Shown: piece by piece, positions 1,844-24,713 of the stretch | How the letters are laid out: every line of letters starts with the position of its first letter | Numbering within the stretch: the stretch's first letter is position 1 | Assembly (NCBI GenBank): GCA_012798335.1 | Contig: JAAZNJ010000005.1 | Coordinates: 1-39,211 of the forward strand | Source of the DNA: Candidatus Woesearchaeota archaeon | Lineage (GTDB): Archaea > Nanobdellota > Nanobdellia > Pacearchaeales > GW2011-AR1 | Direction: 5' to 3' | DNA: 39,211 nt | The notes under the pieces: generated by a model | The model's database searches: none | What the model saw: only the letters and a program-made list of their open reading frames with translations | Told to the model about the DNA's origin: nothing | Translations under genes and position numbers: made by a program

Positions 1844-4501
1844 TTAATTTGAAAGAGGCATTCCTGTATTTTTATTTGCATGTTTTTTAGAGGCATATTT
1901 TATCTGTTCTCCTGTCCATCCTGCTTTTTTAAGTTCAGCACTAATTTCTCCTTCTTTTTTACCTCTTTTTCTTTCTGCTTCAATAAACAAAACTAAATTA
2001 TAAAGCTGATTTTGGTCTTTAAATAAATGTTTTTCATATTTATTTTTATACCAATTAGCTAAAATTATCCAAGTTATTATACCTATTACTACAATTATCC
2101 CTGATATTAAAATTATAAGTTTAGTATTATCTTTTACTTCTACAGGAACAGGAGTTTCAACATCTAAATATGAAAGTGCAGGTGAAATAATTGCGTTAAA
2201 ATTTAAAGAATCTACATTCTGTGTTGTTGCAAAACTTATTGTTCTTGTTTCAGGAGAAATATCTATTTTTACATATCCATTATTCTCATTATAAGAAAGA
2301 TTTCCATCAAAAATTAAATTGTCATATTTTTTTAAGATTAAAGTTGAATTTAATATATTATCATTTTGATTTTCTATTTTTAATGTATAAAACTTTTCAA
2401 TTAGATAATCTTGATTGTCTACTCTTTTATTTATTTCTTTAAAAGTTAAAGATAATTTTTTATTTAATGTTTGCCAATTATAAATTGCATCTTGATATTC
2501 TTCAAGATTTGAAGAGTTATAACTCTCGTCTATCAAAGCAGGCTCTATTTGGTTTTTTTGAGGGTATACTGGTAGAGGAACTTGGGTTTGTGATTTTATA
2601 TATACAGAATCAGGTATATTCATTGTTGAAAGGTTAGATAAATATAAAGCATATTCATTAGAGGTTATATTTGAAGAATTAATTCTTGATTTAATTAAAG
2701 AAATCATGTTCTTATTTTCATTTATTTTTAATATCCTATAAATTTCAGATTTCTCAAAATTGTTTAAAGACATAGAATTTGAATTTAATTCAGAAATAAT
2801 TTTATTTAATTTACTTTCTTCTTCTAATAACATAATAGGCAAAGCATTAACAGCTGAAACTACCTCAACTTTGAAAGATTTTGAATATTCTTTATTAGAA
2901 GAATCATAAGCTTTTACTGATATGGTATAATTCCCTAAAGAAGAATAACTATGGCTAGCTTTAGGAACTGTTGTTTGTATTGGAGAACTTCCGTCCCCAA
3001 AATCCCAATAATAAGAATTTATACCTTTTGTGTTATTTACACCTATCTCAAACTGAGTAGAATAATTCACAGGAACCATTAAAGGATAAATCCAAAATAA
3101 AGCATCATTGCTTATTAAAACACTAACAACTTTTGAGAATATAAGTCTTGTATCAAAATACATCTTTAAGGTGTAATTTTTTGATGTAGTGGATATTGGC
3201 ATATTAAATCCGATATTATTCAAATAAATTTTTTGATAAGAATTTGTTGTTATATTTGCATGAACAACATTCAAATCATAAATATTATTAGTTTGTGTTA
3301 TCACTCCTGCTTTAAATCCTAAGTTTAATGAATCTAAATTTATTGTTTGGTTTTTATTTGTTATAAAATTTATAGGGATTATACATCCTTTTGAACAATT
3401 GTTATTATAATTACTATCAACATAATCTTTTATTGCTGATTCAACACTTATGATATCTGGATTTATCTTATTTATTGAACTAGAATTTAAAATAAAACTT
3501 CCAGTTGTGTTATATTTTTCTTGTCTAGCATAAATATCAAAATCTAAATTTCCTTGGAGTTCATTTAAAATTATAGAAATACCACAAGGATTATCAGATT
3601 CATATTTAATTTTATACTCTGTAGCATTACTATCTCTTGGACTAACACAAACAAGATATTCCTCATTTTCAAATGTCGGATAGGTAACATTACAAAAGAT
3701 TTCATTTTCTCCATCTGTTGTGGCTAAACAAGAAGCAGATCTTGTATTTTCTTCATTTAATATAGTTAAATTGAAAGAAGCTTTCTTTGTTCCATTTACT
3801 GTAGCTCCAAGCATTAAACCAGGACTATCTTTTAAAATCATCTTTTGGCAATAAGCATTTCTTGTATTACCAAAAGTAGCATAATCTATGGCTTTATCTT
3901 CTTCAAAGCATCCATAATTTCTATCCCCATATTCCTTTGTTCCAATATTTGACTGCCAATCTATAATTTTATCATTAAATAAATCAATCTTTAATGGAGG
4001 AAGTTCTGATTTATCATTATCAGAAGTTACATTTAAAGTGAAAGAATCAATTTCTGTTAATAAAGAGTTAGGAGGTGTTGTTATAACAAATGCAAATAAA
4101 TTATCTTGAATTTCATTACTTTCTATTGTTTTTGATTTTGATATTGAAGGATTTGATGATTTATAAAAATCTTTACAATCTGAAGGAGAACAAGAATAAT
4201 TAACTTGAGAATTTACTGATTTTTTTAACATATCTAAAAGAGATAAAGTTTTGTTAAAAGAAATATCCCCTAATAGAAGACTCATCTTTATTAAAGAATT
4301 TGTAGATTCATTTACAATACTCATATTTAACCAGCCATTTAAAGTTTCATTTGAAGAATAAACTGTTGAGATAGAATAACTCTGGTTTGCACTTGCATTT
4401 CCCAAGGTTACAGAACAAGATATAAATGATAAGAGAGATACAAAAATAAAAAAATTAAATGCAATTGCTAAACTTATAAAAATTGTATTTTTTTTCACCA
4501 T
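1844..4501 (-). CDS. Large Asn-rich surface protein with PKD domain, C-terminal TM anchor and short cytoplasmic tail
   Basis: N-terminal hydrophobic signal/TM (IFISLAIAFNFFIFVSLLSFISC). PKD signature YYWDFGDGSS...HSYSSLGNYTISVKAYDS. Many NxS/T sequons. C-terminal TM (LIILISGIIVVIGIITWIILANW) followed by a Lys-rich tail. Confidence 0.7.
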   Translation of the reverse strand: MVKKNTIFISLAIAFNFFIFVSLLSFISCSVTLGNASANQSYSISTVYSSNETLNGWLNMSIVNESTNSLIKMSLLLGDISFNKTLSLLDMLKKSVNSQVNYSCSPSDCKDFYKSSNPSISKSKTIESNEIQDNLFAFVITTPPNSLLTEIDSFTLNVTSDNDKSELPPLKIDLFNDKIIDWQSNIGTKEYGDRNYGCFEEDKAIDYATFGNTRNAYCQKMILKDSPGLMLGATVNGTKKASFNLTILNEENTRSASCLATTDGENEIFCNVTYPTFENEEYLVCVSPRDSNATEYKIKYESDNPCGISIILNELQGNLDFDIYARQEKYNTTGSFILNSSSINKINPDIISVESAIKDYVDSNYNNNCSKGCIIPINFITNKNQTINLDSLNLGFKAGVITQTNNIYDLNVVHANITTNSYQKIYLNNIGFNMPISTTSKNYTLKMYFDTRLIFSKVVSVLISNDALFWIYPLMVPVNYSTQFEIGVNNTKGINSYYWDFGDGSSPIQTTVPKASHSYSSLGNYTISVKAYDSSNKEYSKSFKVEVVSAVNALPIMLLEEESKLNKIISELNSNSMSLNNFEKSEIYRILKINENKNMISLIKSRINSSNITSNEYALYLSNLSTMNIPDSVYIKSQTQVPLPVYPQKNQIEPALIDESYNSSNLEEYQDAIYNWQTLNKKLSLTFKEINKRVDNQDYLIEKFYTLKIENQNDNILNSTLILKKYDNLIFDGNLSYNENNGYVKIDISPETRTISFATTQNVDSLNFNAIISPALSYLDVETPVPVEVKDNTKLIILISGIIVVIGIITWIILANWYKNKYEKHLFKDQNQLYNLVLFIEAERKRGKKEGEISAELKKAGWTGEQIKYASKKHANKNTGMPLSN

Positions 4502-11023: not shown

Positions 11024-13123
11024 TTAAAAATCTGTTCCTAAAATTCTTTTATATTCTTCCCCTGCTTTATATCTTCCACTATAAAGAAGATTTGCTTTTT
11101 TTATGTCAGCAGGTCCTGCACTTTTCATATTTCCCATAACAGAATATTGTCTCATTAAAGTTGTTCCTTCACCATGAGGAGAAGTAATAGCATGATTTAA
11201 TTCATGCATTCCTACTCTTTTTAACCATTCATAATTTCCATAAATCTGCATGGTATTCAATCTTATTACTGCTCCATTTAAGATATGAGTATTTGGACTA
11301 TTATTTAAATATTGAACACCTGTTAGTCCTGCACAAGGAACATTATTAATATCTCTTAAATCATAAACAGGAACAACAACTATCCAATTTGGATGAGAAG
11401 AAAATCCTGCTATGTTATACCAATAATGAAACTTTGTAGTATTTTCATCATCTATCTGAACTTTTACACTTCCACTATCAATTGCAGAATCAAGCTTATG
11501 ATTAAACAAAGCTTTAACACCATCACTCGCATATATTCTTTCTCTCAACGCCTCTCTTGCTAATGAATTAAATTCTCCTCTATCTGGATCAGGATGTTTA
11601 TATAAAACTTCAATCCCTTCTATTGTTGATAAATCCCATTTTTCTAAGGAATAATCAGGATATGTGTTTAAAACAAACTGATAAAAATCTTGTTTTGTTA
11701 CAGGAAATGTTGAAGGATTAGGGCTTGGCTCGCAAACCATTACAATATTATCATAATCTTTTGAAGCATCAAGAATTAAACTTCTTACATAACTCTTATT
11801 GTCTCCATCAAGATTTCCTGGGTCATTAAATCTCGCTCTTAATAAAATCTTGTTAATTACTTTATTTGCTTGAACATTAAATTTTCCATCAGGAGTTGAA
11901 GTTTCAGGAATCACATTTTCTCCTTTGGTAATACTACCATAAACTTCTTTGATAACATCATAGGCAATAACATCCCCTGCCTTTGTTATTCCTTCATCTT
12001 CTCCATTGCTTTCAATTTGTCCTTTGATATTACATAAATTGTAAATTATTCCTTCTAAATCAGCTGTGTTCTTGTTTGTTTCATCTGTTCCAAAACTTAA
12101 TCTTAATTTATAATTTTGATTTTGAGAAACAGCTTTTGCTTTTATTGAGAGTTCTTTTGTTGTTGGATTTAATGAAATACTATCAAGATAAGCATTGCCT
12201 TCTATAACATCTACTTTTGTATAAGGAATTATTCCAGGAGTATCTTCATCTGTTGGTTCAGGAAGAGTGATTGTTTTTTCTTTACCATCTATTAAACTTT
12301 TATCAACAGCTGAAAGGTCAACTTGTGGAAGCTTATTCACAGGAATATTTCCCACATTAACATCAACACTATTTCTTCCAACATTCCCTTTATCATCATA
12401 AGCTTCACCATAAACTTTTATTATACCAGGTGTATTAAATTGTTTTGAAAATGATATCACATTATTTTGTTCTTTTACCTCATCACTACTAACTGTGCCA
12501 TCTAAGTTAAAATCAGCATACAACTTATACTTAACAATTGTATCTCCATCTTCATCTGTAGCATTTAAACTTAATTGAGAAGATTCCCCAACTTTTAGAG
12601 AGTTTGGATTTGCGCTTAAGCTAACAACAGGAGCATGATTAACTATTGGAATATCATTAACAATAACTTCTAAACTTTTTACATCACTTGTCAATCCTTT
12701 ATTATCTACAACCATAGCAGAAAATTTAGCTTTTCCAACATAATCTAATTGTCTATTAACATCAATAGGTGTTTCTTGGTCTATTGTCTCATCTATACTG
12801 CCATTTCCATCATAATCTGCATCCAAATGATAACTAACAATAAATTTGTCTGATTTTGCATTCACATCTCTTAAATTTTTCAAACTCTTTGCTGTTCCAT
12901 TAACCTTAACATTTACAGATTCTCCTTTATTAACATTTGTTTTATTAACAGTTAAAGTTGCTTCTGGTGGCAAATCAGAAGGAGGAAAAGGAGTACAATC
13001 TTGACAACTAACAATCATTGAACTTGCTGCTAAAGCTAACCCCAATCTTCTTAAATTCCTTTTTATCTTTTTTGAATTCTCTTTTATATTACTAACAAAA
13101 TCTTGCAAGGTTCTTGTCATCAC
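11024..13123 (-). CDS. Secreted or lipid-anchored zinc metalloprotease (metzincin-like) with two tandem Ig/PKD-like domains
   Basis: GTG/ATG start. N-terminal TM with possible lipobox (LALAASSMIVSC). Two repeated domains with DxDxDG-type loops (DADYDGNGSIDE, ADFNLDGTVSSDE). C-terminal HELNHAITSPH fits the HExxHxxxxxH spacing of metzincins, followed by a candidate Met-turn (YSVMG). Confidence 0.65.
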   Translation of the reverse strand: MMTRTLQDFVSNIKENSKKIKRNLRRLGLALAASSMIVSCQDCTPFPPSDLPPEATLTVNKTNVNKGESVNVKVNGTAKSLKNLRDVNAKSDKFIVSYHLDADYDGNGSIDETIDQETPIDVNRQLDYVGKAKFSAMVVDNKGLTSDVKSLEVIVNDIPIVNHAPVVSLSANPNSLKVGESSQLSLNATDEDGDTIVKYKLYADFNLDGTVSSDEVKEQNNVISFSKQFNTPGIIKVYGEAYDDKGNVGRNSVDVNVGNIPVNKLPQVDLSAVDKSLIDGKEKTITLPEPTDEDTPGIIPYTKVDVIEGNAYLDSISLNPTTKELSIKAKAVSQNQNYKLRLSFGTDETNKNTADLEGIIYNLCNIKGQIESNGEDEGITKAGDVIAYDVIKEVYGSITKGENVIPETSTPDGKFNVQANKVINKILLRARFNDPGNLDGDNKSYVRSLILDASKDYDNIVMVCEPSPNPSTFPVTKQDFYQFVLNTYPDYSLEKWDLSTIEGIEVLYKHPDPDRGEFNSLAREALRERIYASDGVKALFNHKLDSAIDSGSVKVQIDDENTTKFHYWYNIAGFSSHPNWIVVVPVYDLRDINNVPCAGLTGVQYLNNSPNTHILNGAVIRLNTMQIYGNYEWLKRVGMHELNHAITSPHGEGTTLMRQYSVMGNMKSAGPADIKKANLLYSGRYKAGEEYKRILGTDF

Positions 13124-13162
13124 TAAATAATGATTTTTCTTATTTATATTTTTTTTGGTTTT

Positions 13163-13191
13163 AAAAAAAGCTTATTAAATTAATATTATAA
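13163..13191. repeat. Left copy of a perfect 29-bp direct repeat (AAAAAAAGCTTATTAAATTAATATTATAA)
   Basis: Identical 29-mer at 15044-15072. The sequences diverge immediately outside on both sides. Confidence 0.9.
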
Positions 13192-13220
13192 CAAAATTTG
13201 TTAAATACGATGTAGAAATA

Positions 13221-13230
13221 TTTAAAAATA
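13221..13230 (+). promoter_or_regulatory. TATA-like TTTAAAAATA about 25 nt upstream of the peptide B ATG
   Basis: Spacing fits a leaderless archaeal transcript. Weak in this AT-rich context. Confidence 0.25.
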
Positions 13231-13249
13231 TATAAATCTTAATAAAATT

Positions 13250-13453
13250 ATGAATAATCTAGCTAGTCTAGTTGAAAGTATAGACGGGCTTTTTATAAAA
13301 AGATCTCATCCTGACAGAGTAGTCCTTTCCTATCAAGAGAAAAAATTACTTGAACAATATATATCCACAGAAATTAATTGTTACGATTGTGATTCTTGTA
13401 ATAGTTGTGGTTCTGGGGATTGTAATTCTTGTTGTGAAGTTGTTGATGATTAA
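13250..13453 (+). CDS. Cys-rich small peptide B (candidate RiPP precursor)
   Basis: 67 aa. Cys-free 43-aa leader-like part, then CYDCDSCNSCGSGDCNSCCEVVDD (7 Cys, mostly CxxC period-3 spacing, acidic tail). Its stop is 11 nt before the radical SAM ATG. Confidence 0.6.
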   Translation: MNNLASLVESIDGLFIKRSHPDRVVLSYQEKKLLEQYISTEINCYDCDSCNSCGSGDCNSCCEVVDD

Positions 13454-13464
13454 TCTAAAAAGGG

Positions 13465-14550
13465 ATGGTAAGAAAGATTTTTATCCAATGGGATTCAACG
13501 AATGATTGTAATCTTCGTTGTAGTCATTGTTATCATAATAGAGAAGGAGAAGAACATTCTTCTCATAAACAGGGATTAAATGCTATGTCTTTAGAAGATG
13601 TTATTTTAATGATTAATGATCTAAATGAAACCGCAAAAAGATGGTCTATGAAACCAAGATTTCAAATTTCTGGAGGAGAACCTTTAATGAGAAAAGATCT
13701 TTATTCTATCTTGGAATATACTAAAAATCTTAAAATGGAAGTAAGAATATTAACAAATGGAACTTTGATAACCGAAGAAAAAGCAAGGGATTTTTATGAA
13801 TTAGGAATTAGAAGATTACAAATTTCTTTAGACGGAAATAAGAAGAGACATAATCTTATAAGGGGTCAACCTTTTGCATATGATCTAGCCATTCAAGGAA
13901 TAAAAAATTGTGCAATTAATAATATAGAAGTTACAGTTTCTATGACTGCATTAAAATCAAATATACAAGATTTTGAAGACGTAATAATTAATTCTATTAA
14001 AGCAGGAGCAAAATATGTAGGAACAAAATCTTATGTCCCAAATCCTTTATTAGGTGTTAATGATCCTGAATTCCTGGATTGTGAAGATTTATACCTTTTG
14101 TATAAAAAAACGAGGGATTTAGAACAAAAATATTCTAAAAAAATTAATGTATTACAAACAGAAGTTTTATGGCATTTAATGCAATGGGATACTAAGATAA
14201 AAAAAGAAGCAAGAGAAAAAGATCTTTTTTTAAGTGGTTGTGGAGCAGGATTTTCTGGCCTTTCAGTTTTATCAGATGGGACAGTTTATCCATGTAGAAG
14301 ATTACCACTTCCTATAGGAAATATTAAAGAGGGATTTGCTAATTTAATGTTAAATAACCCTATTCTTAAAGATTTAAGAGATTTTGAAAAAATGAGAGCT
14401 AAAATGGATAATTGTCAACATATCCCTTATTGTAGGGGTTGTAGAGCAATTGCTTATGCAACAACTGGAGATTACATGGCTAAAGATCCAATGTGTTATA
14501 AAGAATTGGTTACTCCAAAAGATATTCAACCTAGGGTAATTAGAAGATGA
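13465..14550 (+). CDS. Radical SAM enzyme with C-terminal SPASM-type auxiliary Fe-S domain
   Basis: CNLRCSHCY (CX3CX2C) at residues 15-23. GGEPL SAM-binding motif. C-terminal C-x12-G-x4-C (CGAGFSGLSVLSDGTVYPC), then CQHIPYCRGC ... DPMCY. Confidence 0.9.
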   Translation: MVRKIFIQWDSTNDCNLRCSHCYHNREGEEHSSHKQGLNAMSLEDVILMINDLNETAKRWSMKPRFQISGGEPLMRKDLYSILEYTKNLKMEVRILTNGTLITEEKARDFYELGIRRLQISLDGNKKRHNLIRGQPFAYDLAIQGIKNCAINNIEVTVSMTALKSNIQDFEDVIINSIKAGAKYVGTKSYVPNPLLGVNDPEFLDCEDLYLLYKKTRDLEQKYSKKINVLQTEVLWHLMQWDTKIKKEAREKDLFLSGCGAGFSGLSVLSDGTVYPCRRLPLPIGNIKEGFANLMLNNPILKDLRDFEKMRAKMDNCQHIPYCRGCRAIAYATTGDYMAKDPMCYKELVTPKDIQPRVIRR

Positions 14551-15059
14551 ATACTAATGAAATAATTAAAACTTGTTTAAAAGATTTAGAGCCTAAGAAT
14601 GTTTTAGATTTAGGAATTGGAAAAGGAAGATGTTCTAAAATTTTTTTGAAAAAAGGGGTTGAAATTATAGGGGTTGATTTAAAAGATTATAAAATTCCAG
14701 GTATAAAATTTGTTAAATCTAATATAAAAAATTTTGATTTTAAAGAAAATTTTGATTTAATTATAGCTTCTTTAGTTCTTCATTTTTTAAATAAAGATTT
14801 ATCCCTTGAAATAATAAAAAAAATAAAAACCTTTACAAATAAAAATGGGCATAATTTTATTTTAACAATGAATAAGAGGGATAATCTTTTTAAAAAAAAC
14901 AAAAATAATTTTTATTTTGATGAAGAAGAACTTAAAGAATTATATAAAGATTGGGAAATAATCAAATCAGGAAATTTTGAAACCGATTTGGAAGAACATG
15001 ATAATCTAAAACCTCATAAACATAATCTTTCATTTATACTAACAAAAAAAGCTTATTAA
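14547..15059 (+). CDS. Class I SAM-dependent methyltransferase
   Basis: Motif I VLDLGIGKG, acidic end of beta-2 (IIGVDL), motif II-like LIIASLVLHF. ATGA overlap with the radical SAM stop. Confidence 0.8.
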   Translation: MNTNEIIKTCLKDLEPKNVLDLGIGKGRCSKIFLKKGVEIIGVDLKDYKIPGIKFVKSNIKNFDFKENFDLIIASLVLHFLNKDLSLEIIKKIKTFTNKNGHNFILTMNKRDNLFKKNKNNFYFDEEELKELYKDWEIIKSGNFETDLEEHDNLKPHKHNLSFILTKKAY

Positions 15060-15072
15060 ATTAATATTATAA
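15044..15072. repeat. Right copy of the perfect 29-bp direct repeat
   Basis: Covers the last four codons plus stop of the methyltransferase (KKAY*). Ends 6 nt before the stop of the convergent gene 15079..15429. Confidence 0.9.
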
Positions 15073-15078
15073 AAAGGG

Positions 15079-15429
15079 TTAAAACTTTAAACTTATACTC
15101 AAATCAAAACCATTATTCTCTTTTGAAAAAAATCTTTTTTTTCTTTCAAATGAAACATGAATACCTTGGGTTTCATCTAATCTTTTTTGAGATAAAGAAC
15201 TTAAATAATCATGAGCAATAAATGATGCACTATCCATTGCCTTTTCATTTACTCTGTCTTCAGAAAGTTTTTTTAATAAATCTGAAGCTTCATAAGGTGT
15301 TCTTCTTGCAATAGCAGTTTCAGGACTTTCAGGCTTTAAATGTTCTAATGTATAAAGATTATTATCATAAATAAATGGGTTTATATCTGTTATTCTAGAA
15401 TAATTATAAGGGATTAAAGAATTTATCAT
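15079..15429 (-). CDS. Hypothetical protein
   Basis: 116-aa ORF, ATGA-coupled to the upstream ORF 15426..15932. No recognisable motif. Confidence 0.4.
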   Translation of the reverse strand: MINSLIPYNYSRITDINPFIYDNNLYTLEHLKPESPETAIARRTPYEASDLLKKLSEDRVNEKAMDSASFIAHDYLSSLSQKRLDETQGIHVSFERKKRFFSKENNGFDLSISLKF

Positions 15430-15932
15430 CCAAACATAACCTCCAAACCTTTTTTATTCTCTTTTTTTCTCATACCATTCATGCTTGGATTATAATAAAA
15501 AGATAATCCAGAATAATCTTCTAAGCCATCTTTTTTTATTTCTTTAAAATATTCTATTAATCTTTCAAAAGCACTATAAATTTTTTGATTATAAGAATAT
15601 ATTCTTTCTTGAAAATTTTTCATTGATAAAGATAATGGAAATCCTGAATTTGTTAAAACTTTATCTTCTATTGTTTTATCTTTCTCCTTTTTCTTTTCAA
15701 AATTTTCTTTTTCAGTTTCTTTGGGTATTTCTTTTTTGTTAAATAAATAATTAATTAAACCTTTCTTATCATTCAATTCAAGATAAAAACCATTTCTAGT
15801 TTTATAAGCATCAAAAAATGAAAAAATTCCTTGTCTTGATTTTTCATAGAATTTTCTATCTCTTTCTTTATTAATCTCTTTCCTATAATTAAAATATTCT
15901 TTTAATCTCCTAAAATATTTAATTATCCCCAT
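15426..15932 (-). CDS. Hypothetical protein (Lys/Glu-rich, soluble)
   Basis: 168-aa ORF, first gene of a two-gene unit. No recognisable motif. Confidence 0.4.
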   Translation of the reverse strand: MGIIKYFRRLKEYFNYRKEINKERDRKFYEKSRQGIFSFFDAYKTRNGFYLELNDKKGLINYLFNKKEIPKETEKENFEKKKEKDKTIEDKVLTNSGFPLSLSMKNFQERIYSYNQKIYSAFERLIEYFKEIKKDGLEDYSGLSFYYNPSMNGMRKKENKKGLEVMFG

Positions 15933-16170
15933 GTTTTATTAAATAGTTTATTTTTTATAAGTTTAATTATTCTATCAATATCTGTAATTAATCATAATTC
16001 CCAATATTTTAATAAAAAACATTTAAATATAAACTAAATGTTTATGATATATAAAAAAGATTGAAGAAACACTGAATAAAACCTTAGGGAATATTTAAGA
16101 ATAAAACAAAAAATAAAAAACAGATTAATAAAATTAAAAAACATAAACTACCCAAAAATAAACCAGAAAA

Positions 16171-17634: not shown

Positions 17635-17718
17635 ATGATTTTTAAAATATATTCAAAAAATAAATTCTGAAAACTTTATTCTATGAATGAAGAGAATGAA
17701 TTGTATAAATATTTCTTT

Positions 17719-18414
17719 TTAAATTTCAATTATTTTCATCTTTCCGGGATTAATTATTCTTGTCCCTTCAAAATTAACTTCTCCAGGAATATGTATATGT
17801 CCACAAATAAACAATTTTGGTTGAATTTTAATTATATATTTTTTCAAAATTTTTGAACCCATGTGTCCAACATAAGATTTAATAAATTCTGGTGGATTTG
17901 GATTAAAATCTAATATTTTATAGGGGGGGAGATGAGATAAGATTATATCTACTTTTTGACTCTTTTTTAAAAAAGTACCTAATTTTTTTTCATCATCATT
18001 TGCTCTTTTTTGGGTATTTTCATTGTCTGGTTTATACTTTTTGGCCCACCATTTTTCAACAAAAAAATCAAATCCAATAATTTTAAGGCCTTTTATTTTT
18101 ATCTCTTCCTTATCACAATGGATTATTCCTTTTTTCTTCATTAAAGAAATTATTTCAGATTTTGCAAGTTCTTCAGCATTTCCTAAACTTGCTACTATGG
18201 GACATTTAAATTTAATTAATTCTTCAAAAAATTTTTCAGATGATTGGATTATCTCTTCTTTAGCTTCTTTAACAGAACCTCCTTCAAAAATCATTTTTCT
18301 TAATTTGTCTCCTTTTGCAAAATCCCCTGCAACCAAAATTAAATCTATCTTCTCATTAGTCTCTGGAATTTCTCCATGTGCATCAACTGATAAGAGTATT
18401 TTCATTTTAGACAT
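17719..18414 (-). CDS. Calcineurin-like metallophosphoesterase
   Basis: Motifs SVDAHG (DxH), AGDFAKG (GD), LGNAE (GNHE variant), SHLPP and CGHIH (GHxH). Start moved from the GTG at 18537 to MSKMKILL (ATG 18414), because the family begins just before the DxH strand. Confidence 0.7.
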   Translation of the reverse strand: MSKMKILLSVDAHGEIPETNEKIDLILVAGDFAKGDKLRKMIFEGGSVKEAKEEIIQSSEKFFEELIKFKCPIVASLGNAEELAKSEIISLMKKKGIIHCDKEEIKIKGLKIIGFDFFVEKWWAKKYKPDNENTQKRANDDEKKLGTFLKKSQKVDIILSHLPPYKILDFNPNPPEFIKSYVGHMGSKILKKYIIKIQPKLFICGHIHIPGEVNFEGTRIINPGKMKIIEI

Positions 18415-18582
18415 AAATTTATACTTACAAATAACAAAACGAAAAAAGTATTTAACTTTTTCTATCCTAAATAAAATTAACAATAATCTGCGTATTGAAT
18501 CCAGTCTTCTTTCTTCTTCTTGTTGTCTGACCCACACCCAACTAACTTTGGAGGTATTAACTTCTTCCTCTTTTCGGGTTTT

Positions 18583-19698
18583 TTATCTTTCATAGAAACA
18601 ATATGGATCCTTATGTTTAAAAGTTTTATGTATACTATATGAAGAAGCTTTACACCCTCCCAAACAATGTTCTTTTTTGTTACAACTCTTACATTCTTCA
18701 GGTAAGAAATCTTTAATAAACTTATATTTATTTTTAGAATTCCATATATCTTTAAGATTATCTTTTAATATATTTCCCATCTTAAACTTTTTAAAAGGTA
18801 ACAATTGACAAGGATAAACATCTCCATTGGATTCTATAATCATCTTGCTAAATCCTCCAGAACATTTTCGGGTTATTATTTCTTGTTTTTTCTCACCCAA
18901 AAGAAAACAAAAAGTATGGTCAAAAACAATCTCTGGGGTTTTTATTTTCTTGGATAAACTAATAAGCTTTTTTGTTACTTCCTTAAACTCTAAAGGAGAT
19001 AACATTGAATCAATGAAATTCTCTCCTTCCCCTAAAGGATAGAATTTAGAAAATTGTAAAGCTTTTACTTTCGTTTTTTTAAGTATTTCTATATATTCTT
19101 CTAAATATGGGAGAAATTGTTTTGTAAGAGTGGTATTTATTGTAATATCTATCTTATTATCAGTTAATCTTTTTATATTTTGGGTGGTTTTTTCAAAACT
19201 CCCCTCTTTTCTAATAAAGTCGTGAATTTTTTTAGGACCATCTAAACTAACATTTAATTTTAAAGTTTTTCTATATTTTTTAAAAAGAGGGAGAAGTTCT
19301 TTTACTTTTTTGGAGTTATAAACATTTGTAAATAAAGTAACATTGCAATTTTCACATAAGATAGGAATTATTTCTTTAATTCCTTCTTTAATTGTAGGTT
19401 CACCCCCAGTAACTAAGACTTCAAAAATTTTATTTTTAACGATTAATTTTGATATAGTTATTAATTCTTCTTTTGATAATTCTTCTTTTTCTAAATTTTT
19501 TTTATTTAGATAGCAATGTTTACAATTTAAATTACATTTTTTTGTTATTCTCCATTGAATTCTTAAAGGTAATTCAAATCCTTTTTCATAAATTGTATCT
19601 ATCTCTTTTTGATCTAAATTTTCAAAGAAGTATCTTCTATTTTTTTTATCGAATAAAATGAAACCATTCTTTTCTTTTCTTCTTATTTCTTCTATCAT
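18583..19698 (-). CDS. Radical SAM enzyme with canonical seven-Cys SPASM domain
   Basis: CNLNCKHCY (CX3CX2C) after a ~50-aa N-terminal extension. GGEPT. C-x12-G-x4-C (CSGGFSKMIIESNGDVYPC), then CKSCNKKEHCLGGC (CX2CX5CX3C), then DPYC. Confidence 0.9.
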   Translation of the reverse strand: MIEEIRRKEKNGFILFDKKNRRYFFENLDQKEIDTIYEKGFELPLRIQWRITKKCNLNCKHCYLNKKNLEKEELSKEELITISKLIVKNKIFEVLVTGGEPTIKEGIKEIIPILCENCNVTLFTNVYNSKKVKELLPLFKKYRKTLKLNVSLDGPKKIHDFIRKEGSFEKTTQNIKRLTDNKIDITINTTLTKQFLPYLEEYIEILKKTKVKALQFSKFYPLGEGENFIDSMLSPLEFKEVTKKLISLSKKIKTPEIVFDHTFCFLLGEKKQEIITRKCSGGFSKMIIESNGDVYPCQLLPFKKFKMGNILKDNLKDIWNSKNKYKFIKDFLPEECKSCNKKEHCLGGCKASSYSIHKTFKHKDPYCFYER

Positions 19699-20372
19699 TT
19701 TAATGGGGGTAACAAACTCGATTTATTTTTTTCAATATCTTTCATTATTTCTTTAATTAATCCTATTTCCCTTATATCAGAAAATTTTACTTTTTTGTAT
19801 ATTTGTTCTGTTTTTTCTGGGAGGTAATTAATTAAGTAAGAGATTTTTTTTGGATTAGCATATTCTGAGATGTCCAACCTTCTAAACCCCAATTCAATAA
19901 TTCTATCCATAAGATACTGAATTGAGAGAATTGCTGATTCAAGATCGTTTTTTTCTAATCCCTTTCTAACATTTATAGAAGTTCTTTCGACCAAATCGTA
20001 ATCTCCCCCTATAATTGTCTGTTCTTTCCAGGCATCTTCTTTTAAATTTTGCTTTTTTGCACAATTTATTAAATCTTGATAAATTCCATTTGGATCATAA
20101 ATAGGTTTTGAATTCCTAAATCGATCAATAATCCTAACTTCTTTTAAAGAAATTGCATTCAATATGTTTATTGGATCTTCAAAATAAATTTCAAATATTA
20201 AACCAGAATCTCTAATAATTCTTCTTGGAAGATGTTCTTTTAATACATATAAATCTACATCTGAATTTAATGTTATTTCTTTAGCTCCGCTTCCAAATAT
20301 CCCTATAGCCTTTGGAGAAAATTCCTTTGTTAATTCATTTTGAACTTTTTTTATACTTATTTTATGTACCAT
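19695..20372 (-). CDS. Pol-beta superfamily nucleotidyltransferase with C-terminal helical domain (KNTase-like architecture)
   Basis: GIFGSGAKEITLNSDVDLYVL fits the G[GS]-x(9-13)-DxD signature. ATGA overlap with the radical SAM start (19695-19698). Confidence 0.7.
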   Translation of the reverse strand: MVHKISIKKVQNELTKEFSPKAIGIFGSGAKEITLNSDVDLYVLKEHLPRRIIRDSGLIFEIYFEDPINILNAISLKEVRIIDRFRNSKPIYDPNGIYQDLINCAKKQNLKEDAWKEQTIIGGDYDLVERTSINVRKGLEKNDLESAILSIQYLMDRIIELGFRRLDISEYANPKKISYLINYLPEKTEQIYKKVKFSDIREIGLIKEIMKDIEKNKSSLLPPLK

Positions 20373-21517
20373 TTTAATCCTTTATATATCCCTAAAAATA
20401 ATCCTTTAATTACATTTAGTGTTTGTTTAAGGTTATTGCTCTCTTTATCTATATTACAAGATAAATTTAAACTATCCCTTCTAGAAATTTTAAAGCTTTT
20501 AGACTGTTTAATCATCCTAAAAGCATAACCTTTCATACCAACTCTTTTTTTTGAAAAAGGATAATATCTCACAATTTGGGCAAATTCATTGGAAATTCTA
20601 TCTTTAATCCAATCTTGTTCTCTTATGTCTCTACATCCACCAGAAAGATCAAAACAATTTGAAGAATCAATAATCTGAGATATACTAAAACCCTTTAGTT
20701 GATGGGATAATATTCCTTCCAGAGAATCATTTAAAATAAATTTTATCTTTTCTAAATCTATTAAAGGGATAGAATCCAATGATTCTTTTAGAGTAACTAA
20801 AGATTTTACTCCAAACTTTAAATGTAAACACGCAGTTTTTGGATCCGGTAAGTAAAAGATGTTATATCCTTTATCTTTTAACCTCCACACTAGTTCACTT
20901 TCCATGGCATAATCATTTTTTCCACTACTTCTAAATCCCCCAACTTCTTTTAAAGCAAGAGTATTATAAATTCCATAACTAGCTCCGAGAGAAATTGGGA
21001 TTAAGGGGAATTTATCTTTAGAAGAGATTAATTCTTCTGGAAAGGAAGTTAAAAACCAAGAATTAATTCCTTTGGACATATCAATTTTCCCTATATTTTC
21101 TAATGGAACAAAAGAAGTGGGAAATGGAAGTCGATTATACGCTGGGAAGATTACTGCGCCAGTATCTTTTTTAGTAAATTCTATATAAGACAAAATTTTT
21201 TCAATTGTTTTTTCATTATAAAAAACAGAATCATCGTCTAATATTAAATGCCAGGGAGATTTAATAAATTCTAAAGCATATCTTCTAATTCCTGAACACC
21301 CTAATCTTTTGTCAGACTTAAAATATTTAAAACCATATTCCTTACATTTTTTTTCAATATTTTTTGACTGTTCTATTTTAGAATTATCATCTACCACCAG
21401 AACATCTGGTTTATAAGATTGATTATCTATTGAATCTAAAGTCCAGCTTAAAGGAATTCCATAAGGAAGATTATATCTATTGTGGGTACCAATCAATATA
21501 GATAACTCTTTATCCAT
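20357..21517 (-). CDS. Family 2 glycosyltransferase (GT-A fold)
   Basis: LSILIGTHNRYN first strand, VLVVDDNS, and the DxD motif in LILDDDS. Overlaps the downstream nucleotidyltransferase by 16 nt. Confidence 0.75.
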   Translation of the reverse strand: MDKELSILIGTHNRYNLPYGIPLSWTLDSIDNQSYKPDVLVVDDNSKIEQSKNIEKKCKEYGFKYFKSDKRLGCSGIRRYALEFIKSPWHLILDDDSVFYNEKTIEKILSYIEFTKKDTGAVIFPAYNRLPFPTSFVPLENIGKIDMSKGINSWFLTSFPEELISSKDKFPLIPISLGASYGIYNTLALKEVGGFRSSGKNDYAMESELVWRLKDKGYNIFYLPDPKTACLHLKFGVKSLVTLKESLDSIPLIDLEKIKFILNDSLEGILSHQLKGFSISQIIDSSNCFDLSGGCRDIREQDWIKDRISNEFAQIVRYYPFSKKRVGMKGYAFRMIKQSKSFKISRRDSLNLSCNIDKESNNLKQTLNVIKGLFLGIYKGLKWYIK

Positions 21518-21576
21518 AAAAATTATAGCAATTTATTCTTTAAAAATATTCCTTTTCAATTGTTACTTTATAATGA

Positions 21577-21996
21577 TTACTTTGGCTTAATTGTAATTAG
21601 ATTTCTCTTTTTTAAACAAAGCTTAAATAATTCTTCTTTAGTCCTAACCCAAATTATTTTATCTAAATAATCTTCATATTTTATTAAAATCTTCTTGAAT
21701 ATTCTTATGGGGGAGAAGTAAGCATATTGGTAATTATCTCCTTTTTTTGCTTCAACATCTACTTCATACACATATCCTTCTTTTGCAGGTTCGTAATCTC
21801 CAACAATCATTAATTTCTCTGGAGGTAAAGCAAAATCAGTTTTCCCTTTGAGAGACTTACCTAAAGCGTAAAGTGCAGCTTGATTAAAATTGTCTGTAAG
21901 AAATATTGCTTTTTTATTTTCAAAATCAGTCTCTCCTTTTGCTAATTTCGGTTTCAATACCTTCAAATTTTGTGGAGAACCATGATATAATTTCAT
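21577..21996 (-). CDS. Hypothetical protein with N-terminal LYHGS motif
   Basis: 139 aa beginning MKLYHGSPQNL, then ...AIFLTDNFNQAALYA...GYVYEVDV. Same strand as the GT2 gene and 59 nt upstream of it. Confidence 0.45.
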   Translation of the reverse strand: MKLYHGSPQNLKVLKPKLAKGETDFENKKAIFLTDNFNQAALYALGKSLKGKTDFALPPEKLMIVGDYEPAKEGYVYEVDVEAKKGDNYQYAYFSPIRIFKKILIKYEDYLDKIIWVRTKEELFKLCLKKRNLITIKPK

Positions 21997-22095
21997 TTTT
22001 TATAGAAATTCTTAATTGAAGGATCAAATTTTATAAAACAAGAAAATAAGAATGATTTTGACATAGTTATTAAAGGAAAATATAATGGGATAAAG

Positions 22096-22511
22096 ATGTC
22101 ACAATTGTTAGATAAGGTAACTAAACCTAAAAAAATCAACTTTTAATCGGAGAAGGAAAGTATCATAAAAGGAGATTTAAAATTGGAGAGAATATTATTT
22201 GTCCTTTTGCCATTCATTATTCAGATGATTTTTTTGAAATTTCAAAAAGAAAAAAATTAAAAAATAAAAAAGAAGTAATAGCAAAAATTATTGATTCTTC
22301 TGAATCTCTATTTTCTCCAGCAGTGTATAAAATAAAAACAAAAGAAGGTAGAGTCTGTTTTTTAATAAGTTATTTTGTTGGGCATGTACATCTTTTTCAA
22401 AAAGGAGATATAATTAAGTTTAAAGCTCCTCTTTTTGAATTTTCTAAAAATTTAGTAAAAAGAGAAAGTTTTGTTATCCCCATTCAAGGATCTTGGGTTG
22501 AAATAGACTAA
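22096..22511 (+). pseudogene. Frameshifted gene of unknown function (or a homopolymer assembly error)
   Basis: ATG at 22096 reads MSQLLDKVTKPKKINF* (stop 22144-22146). A long start-less ORF in the -1 frame is open from 22131 to 22511 (..IGEGKYHKRRFKIGENIICPFAIHYSDDFF...WVEID*). Adding one A to the A7 run at 22129-22135 fuses them into about 139 aa. Confidence 0.45.
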
Positions 22512-22520
22512 TTTTCTTTT

Positions 22521-23282
22521 TTAAAATACTTGTTCCTTTATAAAAGCGTTTATTTTTTTCCAGTATTCTTCAATTAAATTTAAAGAAATTGCATGTCCTG
22601 ATGAATGTTCTATTAACTCTGTTTTTTTAATCTTTTTTATTATGTTATTTATATGTTTTATAGAAACAACTTCATCTTTAGGATCGTGGAAAATTAAAAC
22701 AGGACAATTTAATCTAACTAGATAGTAAGATGGAGAAATTTCTTTAAATTTCTTTAATTGAACGTTTAATTTATTAAATTTTATTCTATAAAAATTAAAA
22801 TATGCTCTTTTTACAAAATCAATTAAATGAGAAAGATCTTGTTCAGTCTTATCTTGATTATGTTTTTCAAAATCTCAAACAGGAGAAAAAAGAATAATTT
22901 TATCTATTTTATTTTTTAATTTTGCACTAATGCCCCATGCAATTGCTCCACCAAAACTACCTGTTAAGAGGATTAGTTTTTTATTATTAAAATATTTATT
23001 TTTTAAATCCTATAAACTTAATGCTTTTTTATCATCTAATTTAACAATAAAATTTGCAAGTTCTTCAATTACATTTTTCTCTAAAAATGACCTTTACTTT
23101 GAAAAAACCCACTATATCTTAAATAAAAAACATTAAACCCCTTATTAAAAAAACTTCATTAAATCATCTTCTTTATTTGAACTAGGAAATCCTGGAAGAA
23201 TAAGAATAGCATCTGCAGGTTCATTATGTGTTAAAAATTCAAAGAAAATATTTCCATAATAAGCTTTAAGGATATTAACCAT
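22521..23282 (-). pseudogene. Alpha/beta-hydrolase (esterase/peptidase-like) pseudogene
   Basis: Reverse-strand reading from ATG 23282 gives MVNILKAYYGNIFFEFLTHNEPADAILILPGFPSS..., a LILLTGSFGGAIAWG nucleophile elbow (GxSxG), ...CPVLIFHDPKD... and ...EHSSGHA. It is interrupted four times: by two compensating frameshifts in homopolymer runs (plus-strand A7 at 23147-23153 and A5 at 23083-23087), by an in-frame TAG (23010-23012), and by an in-frame TGA (22875-22877). Confidence 0.7.
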
Positions 23283-23336
23283 CTTAAGTTATTGGTCCTT
23301 AAATTTAAAAATATATAGTAAAAGTTAGTTTTGTTT

Positions 23337-24713
23337 TTATCCCTTTATGACAATCAAAGGTTTCATTCTTGCAATCTTTTTACTTATTCCCAAATCATCA
23401 ACAATTTTTATAACTTCATCAACATCTTTGTAAACCTGTGGAGCTTCTTCTGCGAGTGATTGCATACTTCCTGCTTGGACTTCAATTCCTTGATTATTTA
23501 ATTGTTGTTTTATCTCTTTTCCTTTTAATTCTTTTAAAGCTGAATTCCTACTACTTATTCTTCCTGCACCATGAACAGTGCTTCCAAAAGTTAACTCTTC
23601 TGCTTTTTTTGTTCCAATTAACAAATAAGAACTTGTTCCCATGCTTCCAGGAATTATAACTGGTTGTTTGTCAAAACTTCTTGTTGCTCCTTTTCTGCAA
23701 ACTAAAACTTTTTTCAATTTTCCATCAATAGCATGTTCTTCAAATTTAGCAATATTATGGCAAACATCATAAACAACATTGATTTTTGATTCAGGAAAAA
23801 TTTCTTTTATTGCTTCTCTTACCCAATGAGTTATTAATTGTTTATTAGCAAAAGCAAAATTAGCAGCACAGCACATTGCCTTGTAATAATTTTTTCCTAT
23901 CTCGCTGTTTATAGGTGCATTAATTAATTCTCTATCTACTAAATTCTCAAAACCATATTTGTCTTCCATAACTTTTATATAATCACTTGCAACTTGATGA
24001 CCTAAACCCCTACTACCACAATGCACCATTATTGTTATTTGATTTTTTTCTAAACCAAAAACTTTTGCAATTTCTTCATCAAAAATCTCATCAATATATT
24101 GAACTTCAAGAAAATGATTTCCTGCTCCTAAAGTCCCTAACTGGCCTATCCCTCTTTTTTTTGCTCTTTCAGAAACTTTTGAAGAATCACAATCTTTCAT
24201 GCATTCTTGTTCCTCTGTTGAAAGATAATCTTCTTTTTCACCAAATCCTTTTTCAACAAAATATCTTGCTCCTTGTTCAAGAACTTTATCTAATTCTTTA
24301 AAAGAGAGATTAAAGTGACTTCCTCTCCCAACACCAGAAGGTATCTTTTTATACAACAAATCTGTTAATTGTTTTTGTTTTTCTAAAACTTGCTTTTTAG
24401 TTAAATTTGTTTTTAATAATCTTACAGAACAATTTATATCATAACCGATTCCTCCAGGAGAAATTACTCCTTTATCAATATCAAAAGCAGCAACACCACC
24501 TATAGGAAAACCATATCCTTGATGACAATCAGGAAGAGCAATAGCATTTTTTATAATCCCTTTAAGTGTTGCAACATTTTTTATTTGTTCTAAAGTTTTA
24601 TCTTTTTTTATTGTTTCAAGCATTTTTTCATCTGCTATCACAATAGAAGGGACATTCATATTTCCTTCCTTAGGAATTTCATAAATATTTTTTGATTTTT
24701 CTTTTATTTTCAT
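23337..24713 (-). CDS. rtcB: RNA-splicing ligase RtcB (3-prime-phosphate/5-prime-hydroxyl RNA ligase)
   Basis: Motifs PDCHQGYGFPIGGV, GGIGYDINCSVR, GAGNHFLEVQ, HCGSRGLGHQ and HGAGR (nucleophilic His). No intein. Confidence 0.95.
   Translation of the reverse strand: MKIKEKSKNIYEIPKEGNMNVPSIVIADEKMLETIKKDKTLEQIKNVATLKGIIKNAIALPDCHQGYGFPIGGVAAFDIDKGVISPGGIGYDINCSVRLLKTNLTKKQVLEKQKQLTDLLYKKIPSGVGRGSHFNLSFKELDKVLEQGARYFVEKGFGEKEDYLSTEEQECMKDCDSSKVSERAKKRGIGQLGTLGAGNHFLEVQYIDEIFDEEIAKVFGLEKNQITIMVHCGSRGLGHQVASDYIKVMEDKYGFENLVDRELINAPINSEIGKNYYKAMCCAANFAFANKQLITHWVREAIKEIFPESKINVVYDVCHNIAKFEEHAIDGKLKKVLVCRKGATRSFDKQPVIIPGSMGTSSYLLIGTKKAEELTFGSTVHGAGRISSRNSALKELKGKEIKQQLNNQGIEVQAGSMQSLAEEAPQVYKDVDEVIKIVDDLGISKKIARMKPLIVIKG

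Follow-up and report, generated by a model that had tools for sequence, protein, structure and literature searches.

The stretch of DNA analysed here, 39,211 nucleotides from a Candidatus Woesearchaeota archaeon and called the window below, carries at 13250..15059 a small Cys-rich open reading frame (ORF), a radical S-adenosylmethionine (rSAM)/SPASM gene and a class I methyltransferase gene, at the coordinates first given for them in a preliminary description of the sequence. Together with a short upstream segment, these genes form a cassette of ~1.85 kb (window 13192-15043), which, with one 29-bp copy of a flanking repeat, is very probably a self-contained, horizontally mobile operon for a modified Cys-rich peptide. 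The cassette is likely a mobile operon of the kind that makes peptides synthesised on ribosomes and modified post-translationally (RiPPs), in which an rSAM/SPASM maturase would act on the Cys ladder of a leader/core precursor and a methyltransferase would serve as tailoring enzyme. It has the general features of a RiPP cassette: a precursor with leader and core, adjoining modifying enzymes and a unit that moves together. The locus consists of the following features, BRE denoting the archaeal B recognition element.

13163..13191, no strand assigned: left-hand copy of a 29-bp direct repeat, AAAAAAAGCTTATTAAATTAATATTATAA, either a target duplication or an att-like site
13192..13249, + strand: 5' end of the inserted unit, with the BRE/TATA-like putative promoter element GTAGAAATATTTAAAAATAT at 13212-13231
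13250..13453, + strand: putative precursor peptide gene, 67 aa; leader residues 1-43 (13250-13378), core residues 44-67 (13379-13450)
13465..14550, + strand: rSAM/SPASM enzyme gene, 361 aa (Pfam, NCBIfam, AlphaFold2 model)
14547..15059, + strand: TehB-like class I SAM-dependent methyltransferase gene, 170 aa (Pfam, NCBIfam, solved-structure matches)
15044..15072, no strand assigned: right copy of the 29-bp direct repeat, same sequence as the left copy

The rSAM gene starts 11 nt past the stop of the Cys-rich 67-aa ORF, and its own stop overlaps the start of the methyltransferase gene as ATGA, each as the preliminary description had stated. The last five codons of the methyltransferase gene are supplied by the right repeat copy.

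The peptide has no Cys in residues 1-43 and seven in its C-terminal 24 residues, CYDCDSCNSCGSGDCNSCCEVVDD. The leader features the conserved motif E30-K-K-L-L-E-Q-Y-I at 13337-13363, and the core the invariant C47-x2-C50-x2-C53. When 30 peptides drawn from every type are compared, invariance is confined to the start Met, a single leader Glu and three Cys arranged as CxxCxxC. The leader Glu sits in the motif E-[KRE]-x-[LFY]-[LF]-x-[SGQ]-[MYF]-[MVI], and a Tyr 2-3 residues N-terminal to the first core Cys is nearly universal among the peptides compared. Outside the leader motif, the N-terminal part differs freely in length and sequence, and the core is strongly conserved within type A, the type found in the window. 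On sequence grounds, a variable N-terminus, a short motif and a conserved Cys core combine into the leader/core layout that RiPP precursors have. At 13358-13366, two leader residues beside the motif set the window peptide (LLEQYIS) apart from that of sister strains (LLEQYMP, P0126); the core is identical, and other type A peptides mostly carry Y-M-P where the window has Y-I-S.

The cores fall into four main types. Type A has the pattern Y-x-C-x2-C-N-x-C-G-S-G-[DN]-C-x-S-C-C-x3-D-D and type B the pattern Q-E-G-Y-T-C-V-S-G-C-x2-C-[VI]-S-C-[GD]-G-N-D-Y. Type C is Y-G-C-D-P-C-D-A-C-G-P-x2-C-x2-C-K-A-C with an NPF-containing follower, and type D is Y-N-C-D-P-C-D-G-C-G-x3-C-x2-C-S-D. Besides these there are several singletons, one of them with a tandemly duplicated core (locus L125; L numbers denote loci and contigs compared with the window). 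In the 16-codon core of type A, 232 synonymous codon differences stand against 130 non-synonymous ones, and the residues C, N, C, G, S, G, C, S, C, C are invariant while their codons wobble (TGT/TGC; GGT/GGA/GGG/GGC; TCT/TCG/TCA). This codon-level inspection of the core was used because dN/dS of the whole ORF (0.2-0.9) is uninformative, the synonymous sites being saturated. A profile search returned 79 database relatives of the peptide, all annotated as hypothetical and none with a Pfam domain. The window peptide itself gave no match to Pfam and no NCBIfam family at E <= 0.1, and 10 representative peptide types matched none of the NCBIfam precursor models (SCIFF, ACGX-repeat, CcpA and others), even at E <= 10. 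The peptide sequence holds no ACGX repeats.

The enzyme belongs to a family that is, as judged from database relatives, large and DPANN-restricted. More than 1,400 relatives are found at E <= 1e-10; the best 120 of these are 48-100% identical, ~345-368 aa long and, where named, assigned to metagenome-assembled genomes of Nanoarchaeota, Pacearchaeota, Woesearchaeota or an 'archaeon', in line with the DPANN host lineage proposed at the outset. The species-representative genome collection contains at least two true family loci; the next relatives are at most 34% identical and AhbD/NirJ-like, among the matches listed. A first genome scan with a full-length enzyme alignment and a generic SGGEP pattern was replaced by a family-specific C-terminal alignment on metagenomes, which yielded ~50 further loci.

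Linkage was counted wherever the enzyme N-terminus was complete and 300 nt or more of upstream sequence were available; a linked ORF had to lie on the same strand, encode at most 100 aa with at least four Cys in the last 35 residues, and end at most 350 nt from the enzyme gene. Such a Cys-tailed ORF lies upstream of the enzyme in 38 of 41 testable loci, compared with a background of 3.6% when every small ORF at these loci is counted. In two of the three exceptions a peptide is nonetheless encoded, with a frameshift in L110 and truncation at the contig end in L102. In L110 (~3990-4200), the type B peptide gene is interrupted, with leader and core in different frames and a stop between them, and is either a pseudogene or a sequencing error. 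Beside the distant relatives L003-L080, no ACGX-type or other Cys-rich peptides were found. The small ORF is not a chance reading frame, since public assemblies annotate it as a gene, its linkage far exceeds the background, and invariant residues show synonymous wobble. Among the outcomes that the preliminary description had named as speaking against its interpretation were a small ORF unconserved in relatives and enzyme orthologues unlinked to such ORFs, and it had proposed a survey of co-occurrence; in that survey the ORF proved conserved at the protein level and linked to the orthologous enzyme gene as counted above.

Enzyme and peptide have diversified together. Clusters of enzyme sequences coincide exactly with peptide types (A, 10 loci; B, 12; C and D together, 9), and the mean enzyme identity is 0.65-0.85 within a peptide type and 0.51-0.60 between types. 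The accessory genes follow the same division: an APH-like kinase (phosphotransferase) occurs in 16 loci, nearly all of type B, and some type B cassettes add a DUF3419-like methyltransferase and a GNAT acetyltransferase besides the kinase. A SprT-like HExxH protein, plausibly a leader peptidase, occurs in 10 loci, nine of them of type C/D. Type A cassettes, that of the window included, consist of three genes only. Co-diversification of an enzyme with its putative substrate and modular tailoring genes form the pattern of a RiPP cluster and, as far as comparison of loci can tell, are hard to square with a generic redox partner.

This pattern bears on a further reading of the small protein as a metal or Fe-S partner—a mini-ferredoxin-like donor or a cluster or metal chaperone—with the enzyme acting on another molecule. 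That the sole universal core feature, CxxCxxC, to which 1-3 more Cys are usually added, resembles the ferredoxin-type CxxCxxCxxxC motif speaks for such a partner, as does the presence of at least four Cys in every peptide type; in addition, a low-potential reductant is required by rSAM enzymes, and genes are few in DPANN genomes. However, the N-terminal two thirds of the peptide are variable save for one motif, unlike a folded redox protein. The number and spacing of Cys are radically different from one core type to another, with a tandem duplication in L125, and core type co-varies with the enzyme clade and the kinase and protease genes. None of the 10 representative peptide types matched a ferredoxin model in Pfam or NCBIfam, even at E <= 10. 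A metal partner is considered improbable.

The window cassette is a discrete insertion with target duplication, a property missed in the preliminary description. The 29-bp repeat occurs in two perfect copies, with no third in the window, and shuffled sequences give an expectation of 0. Both copies are found at the same spacing in four independent assemblies of closely related strains (97-99% nt identity). Exact-sequence look-ups of the 116-aa and 168-aa proteins encoded near the cassette gave no match, and the empty site was located via homologues of ProRS: in L168 (ProRS 92% identical), the homologues of a 699-aa gene and a 116-aa gene of the window are adjacent, 76 nt apart, with a single repeat copy between them, and L168 5535-6085 aligns to window 12648-13199 and L168 6050-6947 to window 15044-15940. 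An empty site with one repeat copy implies that a 1,881-bp segment, the cassette plus one repeat, was gained or lost as a unit. Among ProRS relatives of ~70% identity synteny is lost, and these are uninformative on the insertion site.

In other lineages, cassettes are likewise bracketed by sharp-edged perfect repeats, each with a sequence of its own, which lie 5' of the promoter region and 3' of the last gene. The flanking repeats compared are listed below.

L081 (= L001): 29 bp
L002 (= L117): 22 bp, enclosing the kinase gene
L115: 29 bp, enclosing the kinase and GNAT genes
L092: 88 bp, two mismatches, a duplicate of a membrane-protein gene's 3' end
L099: 22 bp
L109: 17 bp

In L087, a 63-bp perfect repeat (1072-1134 and 3189-3251) flanks the cassette and is embedded in longer, diverged similarity on each side; a pair of paralogous genes, and no simple target duplication, seems to enclose this cassette. 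Flanking genes without homologue in the window surround the closest type A relatives. Two loci have flanking genes in common with the window at 70-76% aa identity, a phosphoesterase gene in L094 and RtcB with the genes downstream of it in L118, and both contain a type C cassette. The GC content of the cassette is host-like (26.7% vs 25.8%). The BRE/TATA-like element lies ~20-38 nt 5' of the peptide ATG, inside the repeat-bounded unit, and an element (G)TA(T)AGAAAnATTTAnAnAT stands at a fixed distance 5' of the peptide gene in the type A loci L081, L082, L085, L086, L087, L088, L092 and L093. By comparison with the archaeal BRE/TATA consensus, the element at 13212-13231 would work as a promoter, and the cassette would thus bring its own.

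The cassette lacks the marks of a transposon or integrative element: no recombinase (transposase or integrase) is encoded between the repeats, where only the three genes lie, the cassette ends share no terminal inverted repeats or terminal motif across lineages, and the flanking repeats vary from 17 to 88 bp with no fixed duplication length. A scan of viral contigs returned no relatives of the cassette and hence no sign of a viral vehicle.

The enzyme carries the rSAM motif CX3CX2C as CNLRCSHC (C15-x3-C19-x2-C22), its three Cys nearly invariant in 28 relatives. Pfam assigns Radical_SAM (PF04055) at 76.7 bits (cut-off 29.5) and SPASM (PF13186) at 33.5 bits (cut-off 21.5), and also matches Fer4_12. 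The C-terminal cysteines are arranged as C259-x12-G272-x4-C277 and C317-x5-C323-x2-C326, followed after x17 by C344, and these six are invariant in the family alignment. Compared with the seven-Cys SPASM motif CX9-15GX4C...CX2CX5CX3C...C, the element CX12GX4C is kept, and neither the first Cys of the CX2C pair nor the upstream eighth Cys of AhbD and anSME has a counterpart. The full SPASM motif of AhbD features eight Cys (PMC10452713). The six enzyme cysteines have the spacing of six of these eight (CX17C ... CX5CX2CX17C), with no equivalents of C223 (auxiliary cluster I) and C312 (auxiliary cluster II) of Methanosarcina barkeri AhbD. Each auxiliary site would hence have three Cys ligands only, and since six of the seven to eight canonical SPASM cysteines are kept, one auxiliary cluster probably has an open iron site. 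In CteB, the incompletely ligated auxiliary cluster I binds a substrate cysteine (PMC10452713).

Profile hidden Markov models (HMMs), proposed in the preliminary description as a means of classification, bear out the Radical_SAM and SPASM domains and assign the enzyme to no curated subfamily, all subfamily scores lying under cut-off. The top NCBIfam model is the rSAM protein of the ACGX system (TIGR04340) with 179.2 bits against a cut-off of 400, aligned over residues 7-347 of 361, followed by NirJ2 with 166.8 and AhbD with 165.1 bits (cut-offs 500). Models of peptide maturases score lower: ScmE 115, WgkB 112 and MftC 91 bits; PapB (NF047865) 86.4 vs 340, SkfB 76 vs 300 and CcpM 69 vs 500; a ScfB-related model 70 vs 855, with the StsB model likewise far under its cut-off. 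Among 28 family members, the ACGX, NirJ2 and AhbD models are equivalent (best E ~1e-57; ACGX 1.8e-56), and NirJ2 and AhbD give the best E-values. Some members reach 1e-39 on the model of the SbtM thio(seleno)oxazole maturase. Because the top three models are equivalent and none approaches its cut-off, the family is placed by its sequences as a separate branch near the AhbD/NirJ/ACGX group and outside every curated family.

These scores, together with a C-terminal C-x5-C-x2-C-x17-C spacing identical to that of AhbD, would also suit an AhbD/NirJ-type tetrapyrrole or cofactor enzyme with an incidental upstream ORF, since the NirJ2 and AhbD scores almost equal that of ACGX. They nevertheless remain far under the 500-bit cut-offs, and the genome-collection relatives outside the family share no more than the 34% identity given above. 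The repeat-bounded unit holds peptide, enzyme and methyltransferase genes and no tetrapyrrole genes, and the peptide is linked to the enzyme in nearly all testable loci, with enzyme clades following peptide type. An enzyme of tetrapyrrole or cofactor synthesis is therefore very improbable.

Among solved structures, the best sequence matches are SkfB (6efn, 88.7 bits) and CteB (5wgg, 83.2 bits), both thioether-forming maturases, ahead of GDGT-MAS, MoaA, PqqE and anSME. The AlphaFold2 model of the enzyme has a predicted local distance difference test (pLDDT) score of 90 and a predicted template modelling (pTM) score of 0.88, and its fold matches are SkfB (top), BlsE, PqqE, SuiB (TMq 0.72) and anSME; at the level of a predicted model, these matches confirm the SPASM/Twitch architecture and not a reaction. 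A viperin-like defence identity was rejected, as the defence models matched only generically within the rSAM core (residues 7-175), besides one weak match of the methyltransferase.

The methyltransferase features the motif VLDLGIGKG. Pfam assigns a TehB-type class I methyltransferase at 68.3 bits, above the gathering score, in addition to generic class I methyltransferase domains, and the closest solved structures are the TehB homologues 3m70, 4dq0 and 2xva. With the TehB models of NCBIfam it reaches 60-76 bits, where the cut-offs are 218-303, and the protein is, on these comparisons, TehB-like in fold only. A homologue lies downstream of the rSAM gene in 42 of 55 family loci.

For the favoured reading as a mobile RiPP-like operon, the following mechanism is proposed. 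Transcription would start from the BRE/TATA-like promoter within the unit and yield a precursor with a variable leader, a short recognition motif (E-x-x-[LF]-L-x-S-[MY]-[MV]) and a core built on Y-x-C-x2-C-x2-C-G. The rSAM/SPASM enzyme would bind this peptide and modify the Cys ladder by 5'-deoxyadenosyl radical chemistry with the help of its auxiliary Fe-S cluster(s). The likeliest reaction would be the formation of intramolecular thioethers from Cys sulfur to carbon atoms of nearby Asp, Asn, Ser or Thr, modelled on the chemistry of ranthipeptides, sactipeptides and QhpD, and a thiolate of the substrate could bind to the open auxiliary iron site, as happens in CteB. In a following step, the TehB-like methyltransferase would add at least one methyl group to a thiol, carboxylate or amine. 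Thioether formation is favoured because the nearest solved relatives form thioethers, the SPASM site is probably open and Asp, Asn, Ser or Thr lie between the cysteines; it is the single most likely reaction, with a probability put somewhat below even.

Non-thioether chemistry would leave the system RiPP-like and act on the Cys ladder or on the conserved Tyr, giving an intracellular metal chelator or redox cofactor as product. Candidate reactions are Cys oxidation as by anSME, a C-C or C-O cross-link of Tyr as by PqqE or SuiB, and a thiol-derived heterocycle. The almost universal Tyr near the first Cys would suit such chemistry, as would the SbtM-model scores of some family members and the fold scores of PqqE, SuiB and anSME, which are similar to that of SkfB. 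A core more conserved than the leader and a wide spread in the lineage are typical of PQQ- and mycofactocin-like products, and the lack of exporter, immunity and protease genes in the window cassette leaves room for an intracellular product. On the other hand, the solved structures that match best in sequence are both of thioether-forming maturases, and presence/absence polymorphism, mobility and swaps of core type between related genomes are more in keeping with a competitive or accessory trait than with a cofactor that is essential. Taken together, non-thioether chemistry is judged unlikely, at a level that still gives it some weight.

Several points weigh against the reading as a RiPP-like operon. 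The window cassette, with its three genes only, includes no protease, exporter or immunity gene and so provides no function for leader removal or secretion. The enzyme has no Pfam match to a RiPP recognition element (RRE) or PqqD-like domain, none is encoded elsewhere in the three-gene cassette, and the enzyme has no N-terminal extension, its rSAM motif beginning at residue 15. Most characterised sacti- and ranthipeptide maturases carry an RRE; in its absence, leader recognition must differ from theirs. In HMM comparison, no peptide maturase is closer to the enzyme than NirJ2 and AhbD, which act on tetrapyrroles. The universal CxxCxxC of the core, usually with 1-2 more Cys, resembles a metal or Fe-S binding motif, and the acceptors for thioethers (Asp or Asn between Cys2 and Cys3) are common among the peptide types and not universal. 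Finally, the putative relation of enzyme and substrate is one of genomic association only. The RiPP interpretation of the preliminary description has gained a conserved three-gene unit with RiPP anatomy; its thioether (sacti-/ranthipeptide) label stays unestablished, as scores lie below curated thresholds, no RRE is present and no precursor model matches.

A bolder and rather doubtful extension of the RiPP-like reading is a DPANN-specific class of Cys-ladder peptides. Such a class would be defined by a Y-x-CxxCxxC-G core, RRE-free leader recognition and a six-Cys SPASM enzyme with a TehB-like methyltransferase; its clusters would move as promoter-bearing units that leave 22-29 bp target duplications without a recombinase of their own, and core types would be exchanged near the same locus. 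If true, the exchange of core types near one locus between related genomes would point to a role in competition or host-symbiont interaction.

The surroundings of the cassette contain further variable features. The divergently oriented neighbouring gene (11024-13123, - strand) encodes a 699-aa protein without Pfam match, which starts with a signal- or lipobox-like segment, contains repeated domains and bears an HExxH motif (MHELNHAI) near its C-terminus. It lies outside the repeat-bounded unit and is also present in the empty-site relative L168; distant homologues (29% identity) adjoin the type C cassettes of L094 and L118, on the opposite side. A second, distant rSAM gene of L094 (7759-9132), ~2 kb 3' of the type C cassette, encodes 457 aa and has 27% identity with the window enzyme. 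Between ProRS and RtcB, a 5.7-kb segment of the window (17645-23333) is absent from L161 (97.6% nt identity elsewhere), with ~6 nt overlap at the L161 junction. L167-L169, which are more distant, have the segment at ~74% nt identity, and the difference is an indel at strain level, probably through loss in L161. Within this segment lies a second, unrelated rSAM/SPASM gene (18583-19698, - strand; 371 aa) with an N-terminal extension of ~45 aa and, as best NCBIfam match, the GeoRSP rSAM protein at 141 bits against a cut-off of 400. It is preceded by a nucleotidyltransferase-like ORF of 225 aa (19695-20372, - strand), and its 3' end is overlapped by a 38-aa ORF, MKDKKPEKRKKLIPPKLVGCGSDNKKKKEDWIQYADYC (18477-18593, - strand), at the position of which a 37-aa gene is called in relatives, with a 54-aa gene upstream. 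The region may be another peptide-modification cluster.

The RtcB gene of the window (23337-24713) is intein-free and encodes 458 aa; in L167 (5723-8623), L168 (12825-15725) and L169 (6213-8849), each with ProRS 92% identical, RtcB carries an intein (878-966 aa, Pfam Intein_splicing). The DPANN contig L172 (ProRS 69% identical) features a 70-aa ORF with YcaO and a gene of the nitroreductase family after it, an azoline-type RiPP-like arrangement, and in addition another rSAM/SPASM gene and a ParE-like toxin (L172 coordinates 12481-14624 and 17837-19126). Several RiPP-like clusters hence occur in these small genomes.

DPANN archaea are host-dependent and have some of the smallest cellular genomes. 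A conserved yet strain-variable mobile cassette in such tiny genomes suggests a useful product, possibly for competition, host interaction, metal handling or redox functions. The cassette family provides a compact three-gene target with natural co-variation of substrate and enzyme across at least four core types, and the clean pair of empty and filled sites, with long target duplications and no recombinase, is an entry point to the movement of small clusters in DPANN genomes.

That an rSAM/SPASM enzyme stands beside a small Cys-rich peptide is a well-known principle (Haft and Basu 2011, as cited in PMC10114670). Characterised archaeal RiPPs are lanthipeptides only, with no rSAM-modified archaeal peptide among them, and a 2025 survey predicted rSAM-type RiPP clusters across archaea including DPANN, none of them characterised (PMC12144867). 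The earlier statement that such systems are essentially bacterial was too strong in view of these predicted archaeal clusters (PMC12144867) and of the ACGX system, whose rSAM model scores best. In the literature on ACGX/TIGR04340 and on DPANN or Woesearchaeota RiPPs, no description of the cassette's enzyme family, peptide or mobility was found.

The system with the top curated model is the ACGX-repeat system (TIGR04340). Its enzyme is of the same length class (~340 aa) and also lacks an N-terminal extension. The ACGX system is an in silico prediction from methanogenic archaea, in which the enzyme is paired with a small Cys/Gly-rich peptide, and TIGR04340 is an NCBIfam 'hypothetical equivalog', itself predicted in silico only. 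In contrast to that system, the window enzyme scores below half of the 400-bit cut-off, the core is a CxxC ladder without ACGX tetrapeptide repeats, and the cassette is DPANN-restricted, mobile and repeat-flanked and includes a TehB-like methyltransferase.

The ranthipeptide systems (SCIFF/CteB; freyrasin PapA/PapB) and SkfB resemble the cassette in that a Cys-rich precursor adjoins an rSAM/SPASM (or Twitch) maturase. The window core shares with ranthipeptides its Cys-x3-Asp/Asn spacings, and the window enzyme would share with CteB an incompletely Cys-ligated auxiliary cluster I. Unlike these systems, the enzyme has no N-terminal RRE and six of the canonical seven SPASM cysteines, the models of PapB, SkfB, StsB and CcpM score far under cut-off, the precursor lies outside known families, and an extra methyltransferase and an archaeal host are involved. 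AhbD and NirJ2 are similar in size, in the C-x5-C-x2-C-x17-C arrangement with C-x17-C upstream and in HMM scores near that of ACGX. However, the enzyme reaches about one third of their cut-offs, it has no counterpart for two of the eight SPASM cysteines of AhbD, and the context is one of peptide and methyltransferase in a 1.85-kb mobile insertion, not of tetrapyrrole genes.

In the QhpD/QhpC system, QhpD forms Cys-Asp/Glu thioethers in a small Cys-rich subunit. No QhpD model is among the listed NCBIfam matches of the window enzyme, the cassette has no amine dehydrogenase genes, and its product would be a free peptide that bears a leader-like region. The two systems are nevertheless alike in concept: a small polypeptide, cross-linking of Cys to acidic residues by an rSAM/SPASM enzyme—proposed for the cassette—and no classical RiPP exporter.

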